Assembly: GCA_051117555.1 (NCBI GenBank)
Contig: JBNPEG010000021.1
Span: forward strand, 1 to 37,747
DNA: 37,747 bases
Direction of reading: 5' to 3'
Source: Elainellaceae cyanobacterium
Lineage (GTDB): Bacteria; Cyanobacteriota; Cyanobacteriia; CAZCXK01
Position numbers and translations under genes: made by a program. Positions 5,991 through 26,810 of this stretch are shown piece by piece. The notes beneath the pieces were generated by a model. It was not told the DNA's origin. It searched no databases and saw only the letters and a list, made by a program, of their open reading frames with translations. Every line of letters begins with the position of its first letter. The first letter of the stretch is position 1.

Positions 5991-6896
5991 TTAACCCTCA
6001 ATCAACCCACTCTGCTCTAAAAATTCGCGGGCGACCTCATCGGGTTCCCGGCTATTACCAGCGACTTCCCAATTGAGCGATCGTATTGTTTCGGCGTCGA
6101 GCATCGCAGATAGTTGGTTGAGCGCATCCGCAATTTCAGGATACTCGTCTAGAATCTCTTGTCTGACAATGGGCGCGGCTGGATAGGGGGGCCAGAAATT
6201 TTTGTCGTCTTCTAACACCAGCAAATCGTAGGCGGCAATTTGACCATCGGTGCCGAAGCCGGTTGTGACATCAATTTCACCCTCCTCAATGCCGGAGTAA
6301 AGCAGTCCTGGATTGAGTGCTACCACATCTTCGAAGTTAAACCCGCCGTAGGTTTCTTTCAAACCAGGCAGTCCATCATCCCGCTCGGTAAACTCCTGAG
6401 TGGTGCCAAAGGTTAAATCGCTGGCTTTATTGGACAGGTCGCTCACCGTTTGAATTCCCAGCTCATTCGCTTGGGGCTTTGGCATTACTAAGACGTAGGT
6501 GTTATTAAAATTAGTAGGCTCAAGAACGGCTAGACTAAATTGCTCGGCGTAGGCGTCTTTAACCGTCGTGTAGACTTCTTCGGCTCCCATGCTGGAGTCA
6601 AACTCCATACCCAGGTGAGTCAGCAGAGAGGTGCCCGTATATTCCGGATAGATATCAATTTCTCCGTTGACGATCGCCTGATGGTTTTCGCTCGATCCAC
6701 CCACTGGCGTGTAATCTGCATTAAACCCAGACTCATCCAGCAAAATTTCGTAGAGATTGCCGAGCACATACTGTTCGGTGAAGTCTTTGGAGCCCACCCG
6801 AATCGTTGGCGCGTCTGAATTGCTACTACTGCAAGCCGCAAAGATTCCGACGGATGCACCCACTAAAACACCGACAAAGACACGTCGTCCGAGCAT
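5991..6896 (-). CDS. Glycine betaine/osmoprotectant ABC transporter substrate-binding lipoprotein (OpuAC/OsmX-like)
   Basis: VGSKDFTEQ, YPEYTGT, FNNTY, LEDDKNFWPPY motifs. Start chosen at ATG 6896 (AGGAG RBS, GRR..lipobox FAAC) rather than 6974. Confidence 0.92.
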   Translation of the reverse strand: MLGRRVFVGVLVGASVGIFAACSSSNSDAPTIRVGSKDFTEQYVLGNLYEILLDESGFNADYTPVGGSSENHQAIVNGEIDIYPEYTGTSLLTHLGMEFDSSMGAEEVYTTVKDAYAEQFSLAVLEPTNFNNTYVLVMPKPQANELGIQTVSDLSNKASDLTFGTTQEFTERDDGLPGLKETYGGFNFEDVVALNPGLLYSGIEEGEIDVTTGFGTDGQIAAYDLLVLEDDKNFWPPYPAAPIVRQEILDEYPEIADALNQLSAMLDAETIRSLNWEVAGNSREPDEVAREFLEQSGLIEG

Positions 6897-6970
6897 TAGA
6901 ATTCTCCTGAAAAGTATGAAATAAACGATTAACGTAAAACACATCGACACATACGATTGACCCAGAGTGA

Positions 6971-7000
6971 CCAAAATCGACCGAAATCGACTGAAATCGA
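6971..7000. repeat. 10-bp tandem repeat, three copies
   Basis: CCAAAATCGA CCGAAATCGA CTGAAATCGA between the permease and binding-protein genes. Confidence 0.7.
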
Positions 7001-7003
7001 TAA

Positions 7004-8083
7004 TTAAGGCGATGACGTCGCTTCTTGGAGTCGTTTAGGGCTGATCTGACGACTGCGATAGAAACGGATGAATTCAAAACCTGTGATCACCGCCACGCTA
7101 AACACGGCGACTAAAAACAAGCTCAATCCGCTCTGGAGCTGATCAAGGGTGGTTGAGATGCCGATCGCCAGCCATAGCAAAGAGGCGATCGCCAGCCCGC
7201 TCGTCACCAGTAACACCAAGAATGAATTCCCCGGCTGCCATCGTCGAGGAAACAACGCAGCAACTAGGCTCAAGAGCAGGACTGGAAAGCCGATCGCCCG
7301 ATATTCTGCATGGAGGCCGGTTAACACCACAGGGGTTCCCGATCCATCCACCGATAGCTCCCACGGTAGCAACACGCCAAAGATTAATGGCATCACCGCA
7401 ACGGCTAATAAAACACCGATCAATCCACCCGATACCCTCGTCTCCTCTTTTAAGCCTTTTGGCGTTGCCCACCCTTCTAAGCGACCAAATGCTTCCTCAA
7501 AGTAGAAAGCCAGCAACGTCGCAGGCAAGGCTCCAGCCAGCATAATGTGGTCTTTGTTGAGGGCATGACCGCGTAAGATCAAATCTCCCAAGCCGCCGCC
7601 GCCAATAAAGGCTGCCAGAGTCGTACTTGCTACTACTACCACGGCTGCGGTGCGCACCCCCGCCATGATAATCGGCAAGGCAATGGGCAGTTCTAGCCTG
7701 AGCAAAACTTGGCGATCGCGCATTCCCATGCCCCGCGCAGCTTCCTTGGTATCCGCATCTACCTGCTCGATCCCAATGGTGGTATTAATCAGGATAGGCA
7801 AGGTGCCAATGAACCCCAGCGCGACTAAGGTCGGAGGCGTCCCAATTCCCAAAAGCGGCAGAGCAAGGGCGAGAATCGCCAAGCTTGGAATCGTGCGTCC
7901 GATTTTGCCAACAGTGAGTAGGGTATCTCGGAGCCAGAGCATCCGTGACCCCAAAATGCCTAAGACCAGTCCTAGCACGATCGAAATGGTCAGCGCGATG
8001 AATGTAATCGTCAAATGCTGACTCAGCGCAGTCGTAAATTCTTGAGACTGGTTGATGATGTAATCGCTCATCTCTCCCAACAT
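7004..8083 (-). CDS. Osmoprotectant ABC permease with long hydrophobic C-terminal extension
   Basis: TIPSLA, EAARGMGM (EAA loop), ELPIALPIIMAGVR, IGGGGLG motifs, plus about 150 extra aa with about 4 hydrophobic segments. Confidence 0.9.
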   Translation of the reverse strand: MLGEMSDYIINQSQEFTTALSQHLTITFIALTISIVLGLVLGILGSRMLWLRDTLLTVGKIGRTIPSLAILALALPLLGIGTPPTLVALGFIGTLPILINTTIGIEQVDADTKEAARGMGMRDRQVLLRLELPIALPIIMAGVRTAAVVVVASTTLAAFIGGGGLGDLILRGHALNKDHIMLAGALPATLLAFYFEEAFGRLEGWATPKGLKEETRVSGGLIGVLLAVAVMPLIFGVLLPWELSVDGSGTPVVLTGLHAEYRAIGFPVLLLSLVAALFPRRWQPGNSFLVLLVTSGLAIASLLWLAIGISTTLDQLQSGLSLFLVAVFSVAVITGFEFIRFYRSRQISPKRLQEATSSP

Positions 8084-8093
8084 GGGCTATCTC

Positions 8094-8774
8094 CTATTTT
8101 GCGACCGAGCCAGGCAAACTCCGCTCCACTCGCCCGATAATCTGGTCAAATAAAACTGCCAGGACAGCGGCACCGATTGCGCCCGCTGCAATTTTGTCGT
8201 TGCGGGTGCCGCCAGCGGCAATTCCTTCAAAGATTAAATTGCCCAGGCTATTCGCACCAAAGAAGGATGCTAAGGTTGCCAAGCTGATGGTCGAGACGGT
8301 GGCAATGCGAATTCCGGCAAAGATGACGGGGAGGGCAAGAGGAATCTCAACCTGAAGTAAAATGCTGCGATCGCGCATCCCCATGCCTCTAGCAGCTTCG
8401 ATGATTGCGGCGTCAACTCCATTAATGCCAACTGCCGTATTGCGAATAATCGCAAGCAAGGAGTAGAGCGTTAGCGCAATGATAGCGGGTGTAAATCCGA
8501 TACCCACAATGGGCACCAAAATGCCAAACATTGCTAGACTCGGCACCGTGTACAACATGCCCGCCAGTTTAATCACAGGGTCATAGAGCGATCGCACGCG
8601 TGTAATCAACACCCCCAGCGGAACACTAATGAGAATTGCAAACACCAGGGTCACTAGGGTAATGAGCAGATGCCCTCCCAGAAACTCCATCACTCGGTCA
8701 GGACGACCCACACCGGGCACATAATACAGTAGACCGTCCTTGATGCTGACAAAAAAGCCACCTAAATTTTCCAT
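8094..8774 (-). CDS. Osmoprotectant ABC permease
   Basis: YTVPSLAMFG, EAARGMGM, EIPLALPVIFAGIR motifs. Confidence 0.92.
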   Translation of the reverse strand: MENLGGFFVSIKDGLLYYVPGVGRPDRVMEFLGGHLLITLVTLVFAILISVPLGVLITRVRSLYDPVIKLAGMLYTVPSLAMFGILVPIVGIGFTPAIIALTLYSLLAIIRNTAVGINGVDAAIIEAARGMGMRDRSILLQVEIPLALPVIFAGIRIATVSTISLATLASFFGANSLGNLIFEGIAAGGTRNDKIAAGAIGAAVLAVLFDQIIGRVERSLPGSVAK

Positions 8775-8800
8775 AGTTGAACCCAGATTGAACCCATCGG

Positions 8801-9940
8801 TTATCTCGCCAGGACAGGGGCAGCGTGGGGCTGTTTGATCAGGCGCTGAGCATCGTCTGCCGCAACCAAACCCACAAGGCGGCGATCGCCATCGAGAACC
8901 GGCAAAAACCGCACCCCATAGCTCAACATTTCTGAGAAGGCATCCCGCATGGTTGCTTCTTCTTCAGTGGTTGCAATGATCTCATGCACGATTTCGTGAG
9001 CATACTTACCAGGCTGAGCCTGGACTCCTTCAAGGGTGACATAGCCAATCAGCGTTTGAGTATCGTCGACGATAAACAGGCTATCGAGGTCGTGCTGCCG
9101 CATCCGCTTGACCAGATCAGAGGCAGGTTCATCGTAGTAGCCGAGCGTCGGATTGGTATGCATCACCTCGCTGACGCGCACGAGCGTCAGCTTTTTCAAC
9201 CCTCGATCTGAGCCGACAAAATCTGCAATAAACCCATTGGCAGGATTGGAGAGAATATTCGTCGGCGTATCAATCTGCTGAAGGACGCCACCCACTTGCA
9301 AAATGCAGATGAGCGTTCCCATTTTGAGGGCTTCATCAATATCGTGCGTCACGAACATGATGGTCTTTTTCAACTGCTTCTGTAATTGGAGAAACTCATT
9401 TTGCAGGCGATCGCGCGTAATCGGGTCGATTGCGCCAAAGGGTTCGTCCATGAGCATCACAGGAGGATCAGCAGCAAGCGCCCGTGCCACACCCACGCGC
9501 TGACGCTGCCCGCCCGAAAGCTGCCGAGGATGGCGATCGCGAAACTGTACCGGGTCGAGCCCTACAATGTCTAGCAGCTCATCCACGCGGCGATCGATGC
9601 GAGCCTTGCTCCAGCCAAGCATTTGGGGCACAAGGGCAATATTGTCTCGAATCGTGAAATGAGGGAATAGACCAATCTGCTGGATAACATACCCAATGTT
9701 GCGCCGTAGCTCAATCGTGTCTTGTTTAAGAATGTTGCGTCCTCCAACAAAGATGGCGCCACTGGTTGGCTCGATCAGACGATTCACCATTTTCATGGCG
9801 GTGGTTTTGCCACATCCCGATGGCCCAATGACGACGCAGGTTTCGCCTTCAGGAACAGAAATCGTTAAATTCTGTACCGCAGGCTTGCCTGAGCCTGGAT
9901 ACAGCTTCGTGACATCATCAAATTGGATCATCGGCGTCAT
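8801..9940 (-). CDS. Betaine/choline ABC ATP-binding protein with C-terminal CBS pair (OpuCA/OsmV-like)
   Basis: Walker A GPSGCGKTT, IGYVIQQIGLFPH, LSGGQRQR, MLMDEPFGAIDP, VTHD; CBS-like C-terminus. Confidence 0.95.
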   Translation of the reverse strand: MTPMIQFDDVTKLYPGSGKPAVQNLTISVPEGETCVVIGPSGCGKTTAMKMVNRLIEPTSGAIFVGGRNILKQDTIELRRNIGYVIQQIGLFPHFTIRDNIALVPQMLGWSKARIDRRVDELLDIVGLDPVQFRDRHPRQLSGGQRQRVGVARALAADPPVMLMDEPFGAIDPITRDRLQNEFLQLQKQLKKTIMFVTHDIDEALKMGTLICILQVGGVLQQIDTPTNILSNPANGFIADFVGSDRGLKKLTLVRVSEVMHTNPTLGYYDEPASDLVKRMRQHDLDSLFIVDDTQTLIGYVTLEGVQAQPGKYAHEIVHEIIATTEEEATMRDAFSEMLSYGVRFLPVLDGDRRLVGLVAADDAQRLIKQPHAAPVLAR

Positions 9941-10481
9941 TTTAGAGGTTTTTTTTAACTAAATTTTTCAACTAATTATTGATTTGTGGGTATTGCCATT
10001 ATTGAAACGTCTACTAATTAATAGAAATTAACTCAGATTCTTCGGTAACTGTCCACACTATTTCAATCTTTCTTAATTAAGAAAAAATAGTCAAGAAAGA
10101 CTTAAGTGGAGGCACTTATGATCGAATGTTTTCAGATAAAAATCTAGACACTTCAACTATTGCACGAGTTTTATAGATGCAATAGTTTTATTCTTGCTAA
10201 ATTCAAGTACTTTGGTAACCTTATCTGGATTTCAAGTAGCGATTTGTTTCAGGTATTACAAAATTAGATTCTAAAGCAATAAGTAGATAGCCGTAATCAA
10301 ATATAAAACCCTATGTTACGTGCGGTGCAGGGCCTTGAATCTGTTTCTTAATGATGGCGATGTATTTATAAATCATTAGGTTTAGGAACGTATTGGTTTT
10401 AGGGGGGTGATGCGTTACGCTACCGCTAACACATCCTACGAAAATTTGAGACTATCTACTTACGACTTAAACAATTTCCAA

Positions 10482-12125
10482 ATGAATCCGTTTACAGTTC
10501 GGCAGGCGTTAGACTTGCCAATATTCGCATCTTCGCAATTGGTTGCAGGCAAAAAAGGACTGGATAATTCTATTCATTGGGTGCATGTGGTTGACATCAC
10601 AAATGCTCATTATCAATGGGAACGAAAAGGAGTCCTGCTTTTAACAAGTGGGTTAGGACTTTATAAGAATCCAGATCATCAAAAATCTCTCGTTAATCGA
10701 CTGACTCAACTCGGATTTGCAGGGCTAGTACTCAGTACAGAGCACTATTTTGACCACATTCCAGATATCATTCGTCATGATGCCGACCGTCTCGGGTTGC
10801 CCATCATCGAAACGCCTCCTGATCTACTATTTATTCAAATCACTGAAGCCATCTTAGAACGCCTTGTTAATCAGCAATATACGTTACTTCAACAGTCGGC
10901 ACACATCAATCAGCAACTTACTAACCTCGTTCTGCAAGGAGCCTCCCTCCATGATTTAGCGTCCACACTCGCTGAATTACTTCAGAGAGCGATCGCCATT
11001 GAATCTCCTACCTTTCAGCTATTAGCAGCGGCACCCTATGGCCTGACCGATCCAGCCTGGGAGCATACTATTTCCCAGGGGCGATCGATGCCTGAGATCA
11101 TCCATCATCTAGCGGATAGGAAAGCCCATGAGCAACGGATGCAAACCTTGAAACCTCAGCACCTGCCGCCCAATTCTGAGATAGGCATGACGATGGCGCG
11201 CGTCGTTGCCCCCGTTGTGGTCAACCAGATTATTTACGGCTATATCTGGCTAGTTGTAGGGCATCAACCCTTGACTCCGCTGGATGAGCTTTCATTAGAT
11301 CATGGTGCTACTGTTGCTGCGCTGATGTTGGTCAAAGAGCAAGCTGTCCGCAATGTAGAAGACACCCTACACGGTGACTTTTTTACTCAACTATTAGAAG
11401 GAAGTAGCCCGCTAAGCCTGTTGCAAGAGCAAGCTCAACGATTAAACTACCGCTTAGATCAGTCTCATCAAGTCTTATTGATTCGGCATGCAACGTCCTC
11501 ACAAAAAGCGATTCAGCCTCTTCAAGTATCAATAAAACAAAGATTAGCTCAGTCCTATCGATCGTTCTTGATCGTCGGTCGAGACGATCATCTCGTCGTC
11601 GTGTTAGAGTGCGATCAGCCGAGTCAAGGAAAGCATCTTGCAGACGACTTATTGACGACGCTAAGCCCGCTGACCTGTCCATTAATCATTGGCATTGGCA
11701 CGGTTTTCCCTGCGGGAGATACTCATTCCAATGGCGTGCGGCAAAGTTATGAACACGCGCAGGAGGCTACCCAGATTGGTATCCTGCTAAAACGACACGG
11801 GGCGATCGCCTTCGAGGACTTAGGACTTCTTCATTGGCTCTATCACCTGCCTCCTACTCATCGAGCTAACAATCTCTATTTGCATCATGTGCGTACACTT
11901 ACCGCACATGACGAACGACGCGGAGCCCAATTGCTAGATACGCTTGAAACCTACCTCGACCGAGGATGTTCGATCGCAGAAGCGGCTGACGTCTTATATA
12001 TCCATCGCAACACCTTGCTCCATCGCCTCGAACGCATCGAATCGCTGTGCGACCTCAATCTACGAGATGCCATTCAATGTTTGAACCTGCATGTCGCGAT
12101 TAAAAGCTACCGGCTGCATGGTTGA
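10482..12125 (+). CDS. PucR-family transcriptional regulator
   Basis: N-terminal PucR motif (LVAGKKGLDNSIHWVHV..LLLTSG), C-terminal HTH LLDTLETYLD..AADVLYIHRNTLLHRLERIE. ATG 10482 preferred to 10407. Confidence 0.92.
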   Translation: MNPFTVRQALDLPIFASSQLVAGKKGLDNSIHWVHVVDITNAHYQWERKGVLLLTSGLGLYKNPDHQKSLVNRLTQLGFAGLVLSTEHYFDHIPDIIRHDADRLGLPIIETPPDLLFIQITEAILERLVNQQYTLLQQSAHINQQLTNLVLQGASLHDLASTLAELLQRAIAIESPTFQLLAAAPYGLTDPAWEHTISQGRSMPEIIHHLADRKAHEQRMQTLKPQHLPPNSEIGMTMARVVAPVVVNQIIYGYIWLVVGHQPLTPLDELSLDHGATVAALMLVKEQAVRNVEDTLHGDFFTQLLEGSSPLSLLQEQAQRLNYRLDQSHQVLLIRHATSSQKAIQPLQVSIKQRLAQSYRSFLIVGRDDHLVVVLECDQPSQGKHLADDLLTTLSPLTCPLIIGIGTVFPAGDTHSNGVRQSYEHAQEATQIGILLKRHGAIAFEDLGLLHWLYHLPPTHRANNLYLHHVRTLTAHDERRGAQLLDTLETYLDRGCSIAEAADVLYIHRNTLLHRLERIESLCDLNLRDAIQCLNLHVAIKSYRLHG

Positions 12126-13373
12126 GGACGGGGATGGGGCTGAGCTGGGCTGGAGCCATCGAACATACCAGTTGATAAACTCCACTACCGACGCTTCCAT
12201 CAAGGGTGATAGATGGCCTGGCTGATAGGCTGCTGAGCAAATTCCTGCATAATTGTGTTCACATAGTTGCCAGTCTTGCTCGCTCGTTGCCCGCCAGACT
12301 GCTGCGACATCGTCAATCGAATAGTCGCGTCCTTCAACGGCATCATCACGCACTAGAAAGGCGACTTCGACTTGAGTTTGACGCGCATTGACCGGAATCA
12401 CGCGGGTTGTCATCGCGTAGTCAGCATTGGCGTGCCCCCAGAAATTTGGCAATCCAATTAATCGCAGGCTGCCTACATTCGCGTCGGAGATCTCCCCCAT
12501 GAGGGGTGCCGTGAGGCGACCGTCGAGACTTTCAGTTAAGAAGCCTTGTTTGAGGGGGAACCGTGAGACGCGAAACCAAGCCCCATTTGGAAAGCTCACG
12601 TCACGGGGGTGCAAGCCCAGTACTTCCCAGTGACGATGGGCATCCGCCAATGTCTGCTGAAAGCGATAGTTGCCGTTGCGATCGTCTCCCGGCAAGCCAG
12701 AATCGTAATTCGCCATCATAAATTCAGGATGGGCACCCTGACAGTGATAGCACTCTCGGTTGTTTTCGATGATGGTTTTCCAGTTGGCATTCACTTGATA
12801 GCGATCGCGCGCAATCACCTTAGCGCGATCAAGCCGATGGGGAAAGAGCTGAGGGGCGATCGCCTCTACTGCTGCTTCAAAGTCGGGTGGGTGCGGTGAT
12901 AGACAGACAAATACTAATCCGGCGAGTTCACGAACGTGAGCAGACATTAAGCCGTGGGCGTCTCGATCAAAGTCATCGCCCATAAACCGAGCCGCTTTCA
13001 GGGTGCCGTTGAGCTGATATGACCAGCCATGATACGGACAAACCAGCGCTTTAGAACAGCCGCGATCGCCCCATGCTAAGTTCGACCCACGATGGCGGCA
13101 CACGTTGAAATGAGCCTGTACGCTACCATCATGATCTCGAACTATAATCAACGATTCATCACCTACTTTGAATGTGATGTACTGACCCGGTGTTGCGATC
13201 TCGCAGCTATGGCCTGCAAACAGCCACTGGGTCTGAAAAATTTGGCCCATGTCTGCATCAAAGATTGCCTCATTGGTGTAGAAGGCTTGCGGCAGTGTCA
13301 TGCCGGGCGTGTAGCGTTCAAGTAATGAGATTAGGGTATTCATGGGGAAATGAAAGATTGACTTGCTATCCAA
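12060..13373 (-). CDS. Rieske non-heme iron oxygenase alpha subunit, GbcA/Stc2-like betaine demethylase
   Basis: Rieske CRHRG..CPYHGW; mononuclear-iron motif NWKTIIENNRECYHC..H; distal EQD. Alternative start 13343. Confidence 0.85.
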   Translation of the reverse strand: MDSKSIFHFPMNTLISLLERYTPGMTLPQAFYTNEAIFDADMGQIFQTQWLFAGHSCEIATPGQYITFKVGDESLIIVRDHDGSVQAHFNVCRHRGSNLAWGDRGCSKALVCPYHGWSYQLNGTLKAARFMGDDFDRDAHGLMSAHVRELAGLVFVCLSPHPPDFEAAVEAIAPQLFPHRLDRAKVIARDRYQVNANWKTIIENNRECYHCQGAHPEFMMANYDSGLPGDDRNGNYRFQQTLADAHRHWEVLGLHPRDVSFPNGAWFRVSRFPLKQGFLTESLDGRLTAPLMGEISDANVGSLRLIGLPNFWGHANADYAMTTRVIPVNARQTQVEVAFLVRDDAVEGRDYSIDDVAAVWRATSEQDWQLCEHNYAGICSAAYQPGHLSPLMEASVVEFINWYVRWLQPSSAPSPSSTMQPVAFNRDMQVQTLNGIS

Positions 13374-13397
13374 TTCGTCAAATCTGCCTCGATCTGG

Positions 13398-13425
13398 GTA
13401 GGGACAAAGGACTGTTTGCCCCCCA
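13398..13425. repeat. Degenerate GTAG-type REP palindrome
   Basis: GTAGGGACAAAGGACTGTTTGCCCC between the oxidase and Rieske genes. Confidence 0.4.
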
Positions 13426-13437
13426 GCGTTTAGTCAT

Positions 13438-14616
13438 TTAAACCCGCAGTGATGGCACAAAGTCTCGTTCGATCAAAGCCGGACGGTTAAACGTAAAGAG
13501 AGACATATCGTGTTGGGAGACTCCGTCAATGGCAAGGTCACTCAAAATTTGCCCCAGCAAGCTAGCAAACTTGTAAGCATGCCCTGCCCCCACGCAGGCA
13601 ACGATTTGCGGGAGGTTGGGGAGTGCATCGAGGATAAAGTCCCGATCGGGTGGAAGGGTGTATAAGCACGTCTTGGTATACAGTTTGGGACCCACAAAGT
13701 TAGGGATATGCGTCGTCAAAAAGTCATCAAGCTGCTGTTCTCGCGCCGCGTTTGGCTCAAAGCTGCGAGTCTTAGCAGTAACCACGTCACCGGAGGCATC
13801 AATGGCGGCTTTGGTCGCAACTTCACCATAGATGGGAAAGCCATAATAGCTCGACTCATCTTTCCACTGGAAGACGGGAAATCGTCCGATAGAAAATTCC
13901 TTTAGATTCGGTGTCGAATAGTAGGTGACTTGTTCTTGCGTGACCGTCAGCGGAATCTGCATTCCCACGGATGCCAGCAGGGAGCTAGTCCATGCTCCAG
14001 CCGTAACCACAAGCCGATTACACGTAAACGATCCTTTTTCCGTTTTGATAAGAACTCCGTCTCCCAACTGATCCGGTTGGATGCTGATGACTGGACATTC
14101 TGCCAAAATCGTTGCGCCGTTGCTACGCGCCAACGAAATGTGAATTGCGTTGCCTCGTGATGGATCAACGATGCCGGTTTGTTCCTGATAAAGAGCGATC
14201 ACCTCGCCTTGGGGCTGAAATTGGGGAAAGCGATCGCGCAATTCATCCGTATCTAAGCGCTCATACGCAATGCCGGCTCGATCCATTGCAGTCGCATAAT
14301 CTTCGACAATTTGTCGGTAGGGGCGATCCTGATACGCAATTTGTACCCCCCCCGTTTTTATCACCGGCGAAATCCCCGATTCCTCAGCAATGGCATCCCA
14401 TGCTTGGTAGGCATAGGGAGTTAGACGCGCATATTTTTCTTGATGATAGGCCAGCCGGATAATCCGCGAATAATCTTGAGATCCTCCATTCAAATGAAAG
14501 AGAGGAAACTGCTCAATGCCAAGCACCTCCGCGCCAACGCGCTTCGATAGCCAGTAAAGCGCTGCACTACCAATACCGCCACAGCCGAGAACGATGTAGT
14601 CGAAATGGGTTTTCAT
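13438..14616 (-). CDS. solA: Monomeric sarcosine oxidase / N-methyl-L-tryptophan oxidase family flavoprotein
   Basis: GCGGIG FAD motif, GGSQDYSRIIRLAY, TAGAW, KTCLYT (covalent-FAD Cys motif), GHAYKFA. Start at ATG 14616 (MKTHFD). Confidence 0.88.
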   Translation of the reverse strand: MKTHFDYIVLGCGGIGSAALYWLSKRVGAEVLGIEQFPLFHLNGGSQDYSRIIRLAYHQEKYARLTPYAYQAWDAIAEESGISPVIKTGGVQIAYQDRPYRQIVEDYATAMDRAGIAYERLDTDELRDRFPQFQPQGEVIALYQEQTGIVDPSRGNAIHISLARSNGATILAECPVISIQPDQLGDGVLIKTEKGSFTCNRLVVTAGAWTSSLLASVGMQIPLTVTQEQVTYYSTPNLKEFSIGRFPVFQWKDESSYYGFPIYGEVATKAAIDASGDVVTAKTRSFEPNAAREQQLDDFLTTHIPNFVGPKLYTKTCLYTLPPDRDFILDALPNLPQIVACVGAGHAYKFASLLGQILSDLAIDGVSQHDMSLFTFNRPALIERDFVPSLRV

Positions 14617-14779
14617 GAAAGACTCGCTCGATGAAGAATGATGCCACAATCCGATGTCATTACGCCTCATGATAAGGAGGATGCTTCGAAAGACTCAATG
14701 GCGATCGCGCACAACGTTTTCGGCCAACTCTTGTGCAAATTCATCAGATCACCCCCATTCTTCAAGAACAGTTTTTGTT

Positions 14780-16063
14780 TCACCGCTCCAACAAGCGTCT
14801 CGTCTGCTCTGCAGCAGCTTTCATCGCCACCTCAGGGTCAAACTGCCCGCGCAATGCTTTCCCTAAATAATCCTGTAAAATCAGCGAGGCGTTGGCATAG
14901 TCTGCAATGGGCGGGCGTAAGATTGCCTGCTCTGCGGCATTCACCAGATCAGGCGTTGGTAGCAGTGCCGTCCGGCTAGGAATGTAGCTCGTTTTTTGGA
15001 TGAATTGCTGCTGGGCTGACTGGCTGGTGAGATATTCAATCGCTTGCCATGCCTGGTTTGGATGCTGCGATCGCCTCGCAATGCCAAAGCCCCAACTGCC
15101 TTTGCAGCCTCCGCCCGTCTCCCCCTCAGTGTGAAGCGACATAGGAATCCGCTTGATCTGATCCCGTAAGGGTGAATTATCGGTTTCGGCTCGACTTAGC
15201 ACAAAGGGCCAATTTCGCATAAACACCGATTCCCCTTGCTGGAAGGCGAGAAACGCTTCGTCATCCGTATATGGATTGGTGATAGGCGGCGATATCCCCA
15301 ACTCAATCGTCTTCAAGAGAAATTTAACAGCGGCGATCGCCTCTGGATGATCCAGCCCGACCGCTTGCGTTTCAGAATCAATCCAAAAGCCACCATAGCC
15401 GTGGAGCACCTCGACAAAGGTGGTGACGAGCCCTTCCCGCTGAGACTGCCAGAGATATCCCCAGGGCGCAGCGCCTTGAGCTTGCAAAGCTTGAGAGATT
15501 TGTAGCAGATCTTGAAACGTAGTGGGGGGCGAATAGCCTGCTTGCGTCAGCAAATCATCCCGGTAATACAGCATGCCAAAATCAGCCCGAAACGGAATGC
15601 GGTACAGCCCGTCTCCATAACGTCCGGCGGTGACCTCACTGTCAACAAATGAATTCAATTGATCAGCCGAAATCTTGGGGTCGAGATTTTTCAGCCAGCC
15701 TCGCGCGGCTAATTCGGGCACCCATATCACATCGAGGTAGATAATGTCGCAGAGCGATCGCTCGGTCACCTCCAAGGTGCACAGTTCTTTGAGATTAACG
15801 GTGATATCTCCTTGGGGATTGTTTAGCCCGATCGGGCGAATGCGAATATCGGGATGATTGGCCTCAAAGTCTTGAATAATGTCTGACCAATAGGGAATCT
15901 CAGATGCAGGAACTACGAGCGTTAGCGACACGGGAGGCCACGTCAGATACAGCACCCCTAAAACCACCAATTGCGCGATCGCCAGTCGTCCCCAGATGCT
16001 GGTTAATCCAAAGACGTGCAACACTTTTCGAAATTTGTACCACGGTCGGCTACGTTTCATCAT
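14780..16063 (-). CDS. Sugar-type ABC transporter substrate-binding protein (stand-alone)
   Basis: DIIYLDVIWVPELA, LYRIPF..DFGMLYYR.DLL, FMRNWP motifs; no permease adjacent. Confidence 0.85.
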   Translation of the reverse strand: MMKRSRPWYKFRKVLHVFGLTSIWGRLAIAQLVVLGVLYLTWPPVSLTLVVPASEIPYWSDIIQDFEANHPDIRIRPIGLNNPQGDITVNLKELCTLEVTERSLCDIIYLDVIWVPELAARGWLKNLDPKISADQLNSFVDSEVTAGRYGDGLYRIPFRADFGMLYYRDDLLTQAGYSPPTTFQDLLQISQALQAQGAAPWGYLWQSQREGLVTTFVEVLHGYGGFWIDSETQAVGLDHPEAIAAVKFLLKTIELGISPPITNPYTDDEAFLAFQQGESVFMRNWPFVLSRAETDNSPLRDQIKRIPMSLHTEGETGGGCKGSWGFGIARRSQHPNQAWQAIEYLTSQSAQQQFIQKTSYIPSRTALLPTPDLVNAAEQAILRPPIADYANASLILQDYLGKALRGQFDPEVAMKAAAEQTRRLLER

Positions 16064-16256
16064 CTCGGGTATCTAGACAGGCGATCGCCTCTGCTCTATT
16101 CTCTATCCTCCTCTGTTCTGATCGGGTGTCGATTTATCATGCAAATAGGGGAGTGCGTTATACCAAGTCGAGCTCGGGATCTGGTATTTTCTCACAGGCA
16201 GAACTCCCGTTCTAGACTTGGATGAAGGTTAGAAATTATTGAGGAGTTTTGCATCC

Positions 16257-16832
16257 ATGCTCACATCTACAGACTTCCGGGGACTATTGAATCCACGGTT
16301 TTTTAATAATCTTTTACCTGTTCCCTCCACCAACCAGTTTAAGCAGGGCACTCTCGCTCCCCCCTTTCAACTACTCGATGTCCAGGCAGGAAACCAAGTT
16401 AGGCTGTCTGACTTTACAGGGCATTCTCGATCAGACTCGGAAGCTCCCAGGCGCTCGGTTTTGTTAGCGTTTACTCGCATCTTTACCGAAAAGCAATATT
16501 GTCCCCTCTGTTTTCCTCACACCGTTGCGCTGAATAAAGCCTATGACCAGTTTCGAGAGCGAGGCGCTGACGTCTTGCTGATTACAAGCACCGATCCAAA
16601 ACAAAGCCAGATTGTCGCTCAAGATTTGGGGCTGAAAATGCCGTTTCTAAGTGACCCCAGTTGTCGTGTCTTCCGAGCCTATCAAACTGGGCAAGCATTA
16701 GGCGCACCGCTTCCGGCTCAGTTTGTAGTTGATTCAGCCGGTAAACTTCGATTTCGGCATTTATTCTCATTTTTGTCACCCAACGCCGATATTGAGCGAC
16801 TCCTATCCGAAGTGGATCGGGTGATGACCTAA
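16257..16832 (+). CDS. AhpC/TSA peroxiredoxin-like protein
   Basis: APPFQL, FTRIFTEKQYCPLCFPH (CxxC), LSDP, PAQFVVD; ATG 16257 follows GAGGAG. Confidence 0.85.
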   Translation: MLTSTDFRGLLNPRFFNNLLPVPSTNQFKQGTLAPPFQLLDVQAGNQVRLSDFTGHSRSDSEAPRRSVLLAFTRIFTEKQYCPLCFPHTVALNKAYDQFRERGADVLLITSTDPKQSQIVAQDLGLKMPFLSDPSCRVFRAYQTGQALGAPLPAQFVVDSAGKLRFRHLFSFLSPNADIERLLSEVDRVMT

Positions 16833-26406: not shown

Positions 26407-26810
26407 AGGGAAGAGTAGGCGAAGGCGGTTGCAGGCTGTAGCCTGAGGAAAGTCCGGGCTCCCGAAAGACCAGACTTGCTGGGTAACGCCCAGTGCGGGT
26501 GACCGTGAGGATAGTGCCACAGAAACATACCGCCGATGGAAAGGTTGAAGATGACTGTAACGTCAGACTACAACCTTTCACAGGTAAGGGTGCAAAGGTG
26601 CGGTAAGAGCGCACCAGCAGCGTCGTGAGGCGCTGGCTCGGTAAACCCCGGTCGGGAGCAAGGTCGGAGGAACGACGGTTGGTCTTTTACCGGTTCCGTG
26701 TTTAAGTACCGCTAGAGGCATCTGGTAACAGATGTCCCAGATAGATGACCGCCCTTCTAATGGTTCATCCATTAGAAGAACAGAACCCGGCTTATGTCCT
26801 ACTCTTCTCT
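26407..26810 (+). ncRNA. rnpB: RNase P RNA (type A)
   Basis: GAGGAAAGTCCGGGCT, AGTGCCACAGAAA, GGTAAACCCC, AACAGAACCCGGCTTA; P1 stem AGGGAAGAGTAGG/CCTACTCTTCTCT; -10 TAGACT at 26394-99. Confidence 0.98.

Follow-up and report, generated by a model that had tools for sequence, protein, structure and literature searches.

Gene content of the locus

Here we describe a cluster of seven genes (cluster 1, positions 5991-14670) in contig JBNPEG010000021.1 (C201) from the genome of an Elainellaceae cyanobacterium (assembly GCA_051117555.1), a filamentous cyanobacterium whose 6.06 Mb of sequence are distributed among 256 contigs. The complete stretch of 37,747 nucleotides was analyzed and is hereafter called the window. 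The cluster consists of an OpuC/OsmF-type ABC importer operon, a divergent gene for a PucR-family regulator, a Rieske oxygenase (Rieske1) and a flavoprotein of the monomeric sarcosine oxidase (MSOX) family, denoted MSOX1 (Table 1). An earlier note on this DNA, prepared from the sequence alone, had proposed that these genes encode the uptake and oxidative demethylation of a betaine; domain and profile searches recovered all four components that it had named, at the same coordinates and on the implied strands. We tentatively interpret the locus as a betaine utilization module that would comprise two transcription units under the control of the PucR regulator.

The MSOX1 gene is located directly upstream of the Rieske1 gene on the same strand, whereas the pucR and Rieske1 genes are convergent at their 3' ends, with an overlap of 66 nt. 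The open reading frame of MSOX1 extends to position 14670 but the likelier start is Met19 (14616), the end of the cluster in the earlier note, because this residue aligns with residue 1 of the MSOX chain 3bhf. The probable starts of Rieske1 and of the substrate-binding protein (SBP) of the importer are Met11 (13343) and Met27 (6896), respectively. Rfam searches produced no match within the gene cluster or the intergenic region between the importer operon and pucR; the sole Rfam match in the window is an ordinary gene for the bacterial class A RNase P RNA (26412-26809, 256 bits).

Table 1. Features of cluster 1 (window coordinates) and of the second cluster on contig C160 (locus L094)
Feature	Location	Strand	Matches and remarks
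SBP, OpuAC-domain substrate-binding lipoprotein (OpuC/OpuB/OsmF/EgtUC type)	5991..6974	-	PF04069, 228.7 bits
ABC permease with a hydrophobic C-terminal extension of ~150 residues	7004..8083	-	BPD_transp_1, residues 35-192 only
Second ABC permease	8094..8774	-	BPD_transp_1, 73.5 bits
ABC ATPase with tandem CBS domains (ProV/OpuCA type)	8801..9940	-	ABC_tran + 2 CBS; TIGR01186, 362.4 bits
A+T-rich spacer between the divergently oriented transporter operon and pucR gene, with presumed promoters and operators	9941..10406	.	466 bp
PucR-family transcriptional regulator	10407..12125	+	PucR + GGDEF_2 + HTH_30
Rieske1, predicted group Vb Rieske non-heme iron N-demethylase	12060..13373	-	Rieske + Ring_hydroxyl_A
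MSOX1, divergent MSOX-family flavoprotein	13438..14670	-	DAO, 146.5 bits
MSOX2	L094:1408-2565	-	MSOX family
Rieske2, choline monooxygenase-like	L094:3478-4689	+	best PDB match CntA
Dimethylglycine oxidase (DMGO), 809 aa	L094:4750-7179	+	1pj5, 785 bits
Conserved 289-aa protein	L094:7290-8159	+	no Pfam/NCBIfam match
L-serine ammonia-lyase (serine dehydratase)	L094:8582-9979	+	

Rieske1 is a predicted group Vb N-demethylase

Group V Rieske oxygenases, as delineated by Quareshy et al., act on quaternary amines (PMC7948474, PMC10952381). Subgroup Va includes CntA, choline monooxygenase and OxyBAC, which carry Tyr or Phe at the position of CntA Tyr203, and subgroup Vb includes GbcA, BmoA and Stc2, which carry Asn, a difference that separates the demethylases from the C-N cleaving Va enzymes; a Cys-x-x-Cys pair is present in many members of the group (PMC7948474, PMC10952381). 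In the Vb enzymes, the substrate carboxylate binds the iron, as it does in Stc2 (PMC7948474), and the Trp residue that contacts the product in Stc2 has been described along with other pocket residues (PMC10952381). Rieske1 contains the Rieske [2Fe-2S] motif C-x-H-x17-C-x2-H (C-R-H, 17 residues, C-P-Y-H), aligned to those of Stc2 and 3n0q, as well as E207, C208, H210, C211 and H215, all of which are invariant across the Vb groups of our alignment; D367 aligns with the conserved Asp of 3n0q, and W360 is the equivalent of the product-contacting Trp of Stc2. The position of CntA Tyr203 is occupied by Asn (N205) in Rieske1 and in all 8 cyanobacterial, 10 Chloroflexota/Actinomycetota, 7 GbcA and 5 Stc2 rows, as opposed to Tyr in CntA. 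By every sequence feature tested, Rieske1 is a predicted Vb-type N-demethylase, which upholds the GbcA/Stc2-type assignment of the earlier note insofar as the protein belongs to the quaternary amine demethylase group, although not to the GbcA and Stc2 clades themselves. Given that the Vb motifs imply binding of a substrate carboxylate to the iron, choline-like amines would be excluded as substrates. One clade of 11 Bacteroidota rows (L032, L037, L042-L051, L065) falls inside group Vb in the tree yet has Phe at the Asn position, so the published Va/Vb residue rule may not be clean.

Homologs of Rieske1 are named 'aromatic ring-hydroxylating dioxygenase subunit alpha' at NCBI, and the Pfam domain is Ring_hydroxyl_A; several homologs carry the JGI label 'glycine betaine catabolism A'. 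The idea that Rieske1 is the alpha subunit of an aromatic ring-hydroxylating dioxygenase was considered on account of these names and rejected as exceedingly improbable: in PDB, 3n0q (326 bits) and Stc2, a stachydrine demethylase (3vca and 4qup, 301 bits), are matched over the full length, whereas CntA and the ring dioxygenases align only with the N-terminal 190-220 residues (69-107 bits for the ring dioxygenases), no gene for a beta subunit is adjacent in the window, and the Vb motifs are present.

Phylogeny of the Rieske proteins and the missing reductase

Phylogenetic analysis was performed with two data sets, a quick one of 72 rows and a careful one of 56 rows, which produced concordant trees (the fragmentary rows L060 and L064 were excluded). 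The GbcA references were 7 sequences above the NCBIfam GbcA cut-off, obtained by searching one Pseudomonadota order; none of the 22 relatives from plasmids and genome contigs reached this cut-off. Stc2 was represented by L071 from pSymA, as verified by a 974-bit match to 3vca, and HpbB1 by a Cereibacter LysR-Rieske-reductase locus consistent with the published hpbR-hpbB1-hpbC1 (PMC3950512). The Paracoccus reference is a plasmid gene next to sox, folD and purU, which we take to be GbcAB (Pden_4896/4897) as presented in a preprint (10.1101/2023.12.12.567942), going by the plasmid record and the gene neighbors, not by locus tags. CntA and the Rieske paralogs from the genome itself were included as further references.

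The quick tree contains a 56-row Vb clade that includes Rieske1 and excludes CntA and the genome's own paralogs (SH-aLRT 100), and in the careful tree, Rieske1 again lies inside the Vb clade (100/100). Grouping with the aromatic-ring dioxygenases, which the earlier note had named as a refutation of its proposal, was not observed. The proteobacterial sequences form one clade (100/100) that holds both the GbcA clade (100/100) and the Stc2/HpbB1 clade (5 rows, 100/99). Rieske1 belongs to neither of these but to a separate 18-row clade (100/97) of sequences from Actinomycetota, Anaerolineae and cyanobacteria, in which the 8 cyanobacterial rows are monophyletic (99/94) and are the sister group of Anaerolineae (100/98). 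This clade has no characterized member. Since both known activities reside together in the sister proteobacterial clade, equally distant from Rieske1, the tree is silent on glycine betaine versus proline betaine, and we accordingly abandoned phylogeny as a test of the substrate. Among the 11 columns that separate the GbcA and Stc2 clades, which are too few and are confounded by ancestry, the Rieske1 clade agrees with GbcA at 5, with Stc2 at 1 and with neither at 5. Moreover, the above preprint reports genetic evidence that Paracoccus HpbC2B2 acts on both glycine betaine and proline betaine (10.1101/2023.12.12.567942), so substrate specificity appears to be soft in this Rieske family.

A gene for a GbcB/HpbC-type reductase is adjacent in 17 of the 19 proteobacterial relatives, whereas tblastn searches with three GbcB/BmoB/HpbC-type reductases detected none in the 18 loci of the Rieske1 clade. 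The same type of search found no GbcB ortholog in the host genome, where the best match (28% identical, on contig C22) covers the FNR-like part only and the others are plant-type ferredoxins. This lack of a dedicated reductase, both in the loci of the clade and in the host genome, suggests that a general ferredoxin is the electron donor of Rieske1.

Three further Rieske paralogs, 25-29% identical to Rieske1, are encoded on contig C192 (L095:3931-5187, 14450-15559 and ~19071 onward), interleaved with genes for NMT1-type ABC transporters, formamidase-like, acyl-CoA dehydrogenase-like and MOSC proteins, and a TetR regulator. This region may be another locus for the catabolism of nitrogen compounds.

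The flavoprotein, the importer and the regulator

MSOX1 scores above the cut-off of the NCBIfam model NF008425 (290.5 versus 257 bits) and below that of TIGR01377 (241.3 versus 479.65 bits); its PDB matches include 7exs (195 bits) and the MSOX structure 1el5 (172 bits). In the alignment with 1el5, the equivalents of R49, R52, K265, C315, Y317 and K348 of Bacillus MSOX are all retained, among which C315 is presumably the covalent FAD attachment site, and R52 and K348 are presumably the Arg/Lys pair that holds the substrate carboxylate. The DAO fold, these conserved residues and the NF008425 score place MSOX1 in the MSOX family. The position of MSOX His269 is occupied by Asp in all 10 cyanobacterial and Anaerolineae MSOX1 sequences that have this column; this Asp is absent from the reference MSOX, and the actinobacterial MSOX partners keep Met and His at the positions of Met245 and His269. 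Genes for AhpC/TSA-family thiol peroxidases or redoxins are found near MSOX1 in the window (16239-16832) and directly upstream of MSOX1 in L019 (L019:7696-8301), which may be relevant to the H2O2 produced by an oxidase or may be a coincidence.

The importer has all the hallmarks of the OpuC/OsmF type: an OpuAC-domain SBP, two BPD_transp_1 permeases and a CBS-bearing ProV-type ATPase, encoded in one presumed operon. The SBP, in which the probable start is followed by a lipoprotein signal peptide that ends in a lipobox Cys, has its best PDB matches (160-194 bits) in OpuBC-derived sensors, EgtUC, OpuCC and ProX of A. fulgidus; its orthologs in L009-L012 and L021 are 74-96% identical. The ATPase exceeds the cut-off of the proV model TIGR01186 (326.6 bits), and the best NCBIfam models for the shorter permease, ProW and choline permease, both remain below their cut-offs. 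The longer permease (359 aa) has cyanobacterial orthologs of 358-361 aa that are 75-96% identical. Its hydrophobic C-terminal tail (7004-7540) gave no family match in a Pfam search and apparently contributes several extra membrane helices, which are kept in the cyanobacterial orthologs and are missing in the paralog on contig C1. That contig carries a second OpuC-type betaine importer, the SBP of which is 50% identical to the one in the window. Next to MSOX1 is also an orphan gene for a sugar-type SBP (14780-16063) that is outside the conserved cluster of the relatives; a 44% identical paralog heads a complete MalK-type sugar ABC transporter, likewise on contig C1, where this transporter and the second betaine importer fall within L097:761-5147 and 11735-14960.

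The regulator contains the PucR N-terminal, GGDEF-like and C-terminal HTH_30 domains, all above the Pfam cut-offs. Its orthologs occupy the same position in L009-L012, L020 and L021 (59-87% identity), and in the Anaerolineae loci L014 and L015, a PucR protein with 34-35% identity is encoded next to the MSOX-Rieske pair. The GC content over positions 10001-11000, which include much of the divergent intergenic region, is 0.386. The msox1 upstream region was searched for operators together with the spacer between pucR and the ATPase gene, and 7 loci were compared with one another; neither comparison revealed convincing shared k-mers.

Conservation and loss of the cluster

No homolog of Rieske1 was detected at E <= 1e-60 in any of the 400 other cyanobacterial genomes sampled. 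When one genome was scanned per species, at least 8 cyanobacterial Rieske1 loci were identified, a minimum because only close relatives are detected in this way. The complete gene order MSOX1-Rieske1-PucR-ATPase-permease-permease-SBP is preserved in 5 further cyanobacteria (L009, L010, L011, L012 and L021) and, in part, on L020, an incomplete contig, with 59-97% protein identity across the syntenic clusters. This synteny, which the earlier note had proposed to check, and the position of Rieske1 within the demethylase group bear out the central proposal of a real, conserved module for betaine-type uptake and oxidative N-demethylation. An MSOX gene directly adjoins the Rieske gene in 14 of the clade's 18 rows, from three phyla, with a weaker MSOX match in L022 (42% over 291 aa). 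The two genes are not adjacent in L013, L016, L017 and L023, the last being a 3.3-kb contig that may end too soon. The Anaerolineae pair has a PucR gene as a neighbor, joined in L015 by genes for two OpuAC-domain proteins.

G158, a 99% complete genome from the same genus, aligns collinearly with the window (87-91% DNA identity) but lacks positions 6498-13311, that is, most of the SBP gene, both permeases, the ATPase, PucR and Rieske1, by a clean 6.8-kb deletion. On contig C20 of this genome (L113), the scars are a piece of the SBP gene of ~70 nt (6429-6497) and the first 62 nt of Rieske1 (13312-13373), 43 nt apart, and MSOX1 is intact, with 96% protein identity. The collinearity and the scars on both sides imply that the genus ancestrally had cluster 1 and that G158 lost it by deletion. 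The window contains 50 sites of the cyanobacterial palindrome HIP1 (GCGATCGC) against 1.0 expected, and their density within 5991-14616 (13 sites, 1.5 per kb) is similar to that elsewhere in the window (1.3 per kb). This normal HIP1 density and the deletion scars in G158 support the long residence of the genes that the earlier note had suggested. We considered and rejected the alternative of a recent horizontally acquired island: apart from the HIP1 density, the GC content is like that of the surroundings, the cyanobacterial copies form one clade, and the comparison with G158 reveals loss in that genome, not gain by the host genome (G000).

A second cluster on another contig

Contig C160 carries a second cluster (cluster 2) that encodes another MSOX paralog (MSOX2), another Rieske protein (Rieske2), DMGO, a conserved protein and serine dehydratase (Table 1). 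The DMGO contains the DAO, FAO_M, GCV_T and GCV_T_C domains and aligns with Arthrobacter DMGO (1pj5) over residues 3-805 of 809. The earlier note was correct in that no enzyme for dimethylglycine is encoded in the window; for the genome, the statement does not hold. Rieske2 has an aromatic residue at the position of CntA Tyr203 and lacks the Cys pair; nearly all of its homologs come from cyanobacteria, and JGI names them 'choline monooxygenase'. MSOX2, which is closer than MSOX1 to the MSOX models, has Tyr, Phe and Phe at the positions of His45, Met245 and His269 in all 6 sequences. In the relatives, cluster 2 additionally holds genes for a BCCT transporter, a GntR/UTRA regulator and an EamA protein; the host BCCT and GntR/UTRA pair is on a different contig, C165 (L115:4939-7664), and the two proteins are 66% and 48% identical to those in cluster 2 of the relatives. 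Within the spacer between MSOX2 and Rieske2, at the site of the BCCT gene in the relatives, lies a dispersed small repeat (L094:2738-2908) found in more than 15 places in G158 (70-96% identity).

Cluster 2 is conserved in 6 other cyanobacterial genomes, including 5 of the 5 that have cluster 1, and G158 has lost all of it except for the flanking Dus gene. A DMGO with >70% identity was detected in only one of the 400 other sampled cyanobacteria (G264). Of the 16 Rieske1-clade genomes examined, host included, 12 carry a full-length gene resembling DMGO; among the 10 further genomes of the clade, the count is 6.

Predicted pathway and alternative substrates

In the pathway that we favor, the ABC importer, composed of the lipoprotein SBP, two permeases and the CBS-ATPase, would bring in a carboxylate-bearing quaternary amine. 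Rieske1 would then hydroxylate one N-methyl group, with the methyl departing as formaldehyde and the electrons probably coming from a general ferredoxin, without a dedicated GbcB-type reductase, and MSOX1 would oxidize a later N-methyl amino acid intermediate, releasing formaldehyde and H2O2. If the substrate is glycine betaine, Rieske1 would convert it to dimethylglycine, the DMGO of cluster 2 would yield sarcosine, and MSOX1 and/or MSOX2 would produce glycine, which could enter serine and, through the serine dehydratase, give pyruvate and ammonium, so that the route might serve for scavenging of nitrogen or carbon. Although sequence alone cannot decide between the betaines, we rank glycine betaine first, with a probability of roughly 0.45, because the genome encodes Rieske1, DMGO, two MSOX paralogs and serine dehydratase, and because the two loci co-occur and vanish together. 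The preference of the earlier note for proline betaine rested on the absence of an enzyme for dimethylglycine and fails at the genome level, given the full-length DMGO in a cluster that co-occurs with cluster 1.

Several observations weigh against glycine betaine as the substrate of cluster 1. The 7-sequence GbcA clade excludes Rieske1 (100/100), and the best and sole strong NCBIfam model for this protein, GbcA (NF058607), yields 400.2 bits, below the cut-off of 670. MSOX1 lacks the canonical sarcosine pocket, with Gln, Gln and Asp against His45, Met245 and His269 of Bacillus MSOX, and is only 40% identical to MSOX2. Cluster 2 in the relatives appears self-sufficient, with its own Rieske2, BCCT transporter and GntR regulator, and G264 possesses cluster 2 without a Rieske1 homolog (best match 96 bits). 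That another module exists under separate regulation, MSOX paralog included, suggests a different substrate for cluster 1, and cluster 2 alone may be a complete route for glycine betaine, leaving cluster 1 for another betaine. No full-length DMGO was found in the Rieske1-clade genomes G509, G510, G512 and G515, whose completeness is unreported. Furthermore, the co-occurrence of the two clusters was counted among related cyanobacteria and is not independent evidence.

The alternative preferred in the earlier note is a self-contained route for proline betaine (stachydrine), in which Rieske1 would produce N-methylproline and MSOX1 would produce proline, with cluster 2 as a separate glycine betaine route. 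The transporter, regulator, Rieske and MSOX genes that cluster 2 has for itself, and its occurrence without Rieske1 in G264, fit such a division. Two demethylases are enough for a dimethyl betaine, and the same logic of a Rieske enzyme followed by a flavoprotein is known from Paracoccus (PMC3950512). Among solved structures, Stc2 and its relative 3n0q come closest (301-326 bits), an unfair comparison because no GbcA structure appeared in that search; MSOX1 and MSOX2 differ at the three pocket positions (Q/Q/D versus Y/F/F); and G510 (L019), one of the genomes devoid of a full-length DMGO, has the MSOX1-Rieske1 pair. We nevertheless consider this route somewhat unlikely. No PutA, proline racemase or hydroxyproline gene was found by Pfam scan beside a Rieske1-clade gene in the window or in 8 other loci (L013-L019 and L024), whereas such genes do occur at the Rhizobium loci L078 and L079. 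Rieske1 is outside the Stc2/HpbB1 clade and matches it at only one of the discriminating columns, cluster 1 never occurs without cluster 2 in the 6 genomes with the full cluster, host included, and Stc2 in the crystal reportedly removes both methyl groups (PMC10952381), which would make an MSOX partner unnecessary. An elaboration of the same idea, which we regard as speculative and rather improbable, is a two-module, ferredoxin-driven and hence light-driven betaine-mineralizing network in a few filamentous cyanobacteria. Cluster 2, with BCCT, GntR, Rieske2, DMGO, MSOX2 and serine dehydratase, would process glycine betaine, with the Va-like Rieske2 acting as an unrecognized glycine betaine demethylase, and cluster 1 would process another amino acid betaine, such as proline betaine, with MSOX1, in which Asp replaces the active-site His, standing in for an unrelated demethylase used by the proteobacteria; electrons for both Rieske enzymes would come directly from photosynthetic ferredoxin.

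Other N-methylated carboxylates, namely the betaines of hydroxyproline, alanine, beta-alanine or homoserine, imported dimethylglycine or sarcosine, or a broad range that includes both betaines, are quite unlikely as the substrate, as nothing positively indicates any particular alternative and the Vb motifs exclude choline-like amines (PMC7948474). What speaks for such a substrate is the uncharacterized clade of Rieske1, the bifunctional HpbC2B2 of Paracoccus (preprint 10.1101/2023.12.12.567942), the Asp of the MSOX1 pocket in the cyanobacterial and Anaerolineae sequences, and the diversity of quaternary amines bound by the nearest solved relatives of the SBP, from glycine or proline betaine to carnitine, ergothioneine and, in the sensor scaffolds, choline and acetylcholine. 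Osmoprotection is the classic role of OpuC/OsmF-type importers. With this in mind, and considering the second OpuC-type importer on C1 and the occurrence of the enzyme pair without a transporter in L019 and several actinobacterial loci, the transporter could be purely osmoprotective and its adjacency to the two oxidoreductases functionally meaningless. This we view as very improbable because the seven-gene order has been held in 5 other cyanobacteria although their proteins share just 59-86% identity with those of the host, the deletion in G158 took the transporter, the regulator and Rieske1 together, and L015 in Anaerolineae is an independent instance in which the enzyme pair is combined with PucR and OpuAC-domain proteins. 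On balance, we retain glycine betaine as the preferred substrate.

Implications and comparison with known systems

Among the small nitrogen compounds that algae, plants and microbes release, betaines are some of the most abundant, and their breakdown is credited to heterotrophic bacteria. Cyanobacteria are described as producers and importers of glycine betaine (PMC9321204, PMC12324868, PMC12478193), and we found no description of a cyanobacterial cluster for betaine catabolism in the accessible literature, subscription journals being outside its coverage. Should the pathway outlined here operate, a phototroph may feed on compounds that are thought to be merely stored, and some cyanobacteria that form mats or biofilms would compete for the pool of betaine nitrogen and carbon, with release of formaldehyde and H2O2. 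The Rieske1 clade would then be the first group of Vb demethylases to operate without a dedicated reductase and would supply a candidate enzyme for demethylating glycine betaine in those Actinomycetota and Chloroflexota genomes that carry it. MSOX1 and MSOX2 represent two natural MSOX variants with altered active sites, and G158, having lost the two clusters, serves as a natural knockout with which the host can be compared.

Among the known systems, GbcAB/BmoAB of Pseudomonas and Chromohalobacter belong to the same group Vb and share with Rieske1 the iron and Rieske ligands, the Cys pair, the Asn and, as predicted from these motifs, the chemistry, hydroxylation of an N-methyl group with release of formaldehyde; Rieske1 is 36-38% identical to the 7 sequences above the NCBIfam GbcA cut-off. 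Unlike these systems, Rieske1 is outside the GbcA clade, has no GbcB/BmoB reductase either adjacent or in the genome, and is paired with MSOX and PucR, where the Paracoccus and Rhizobium loci have a GlxA-type regulator instead. The Stc2/HpbB1C1 and HpbA systems of Sinorhizobium, Paracoccus and Cereibacter include the best structure matches (3vca, 4qup and 3n0q) and, at some loci, have a betaine ABC transporter nearby, but Rieske1 is 33-37% identical to Stc2/HpbB1 and lies outside their clade, and these systems employ a LysR regulator and an adjacent reductase. HpbA itself we take to belong to a flavoprotein family other than MSOX. The parallel is nonetheless in the order of events, in which a Rieske demethylase is followed by a flavoprotein demethylase (PMC3950512).

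The Arthrobacter pair of DMGO and monomeric sarcosine oxidase resembles the combination described here in that the DMGO of contig C160 aligns with 1pj5 over its full length and both MSOX1 and MSOX2 belong to the MSOX family; the differences are that the genes here are cyanobacterial and clustered with Rieske oxygenases and serine dehydratase, and that neither MSOX protein has an equivalent of His269. Plant choline monooxygenase, a ferredoxin-dependent enzyme of group Va, is likewise a quaternary amine Rieske oxygenase of an oxygenic phototroph without a dedicated reductase; however, Rieske1 is of the Vb type, with Asn, and the plant enzyme makes betaine, whereas the locus in the window is predicted to destroy it. 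The OpuC, OpuB, OsmF (YehZYXW) and EgtUV importers share with cluster 1 the SBP fold family, the four-component layout and the CBS-domain ATPase, from which the importer described here differs by an SBP that is below the cut-off of the OsmF equivalog NF049931 (149 versus 400 bits), the extra hydrophobic tail of ~150 residues in one permease and the linkage to catabolic genes. The protein families are all known, and what is new compared with these systems is the Rieske1 clade, the missing reductase, the pairing with MSOX, the PucR control, the host phylum and the arrangement in two clusters.

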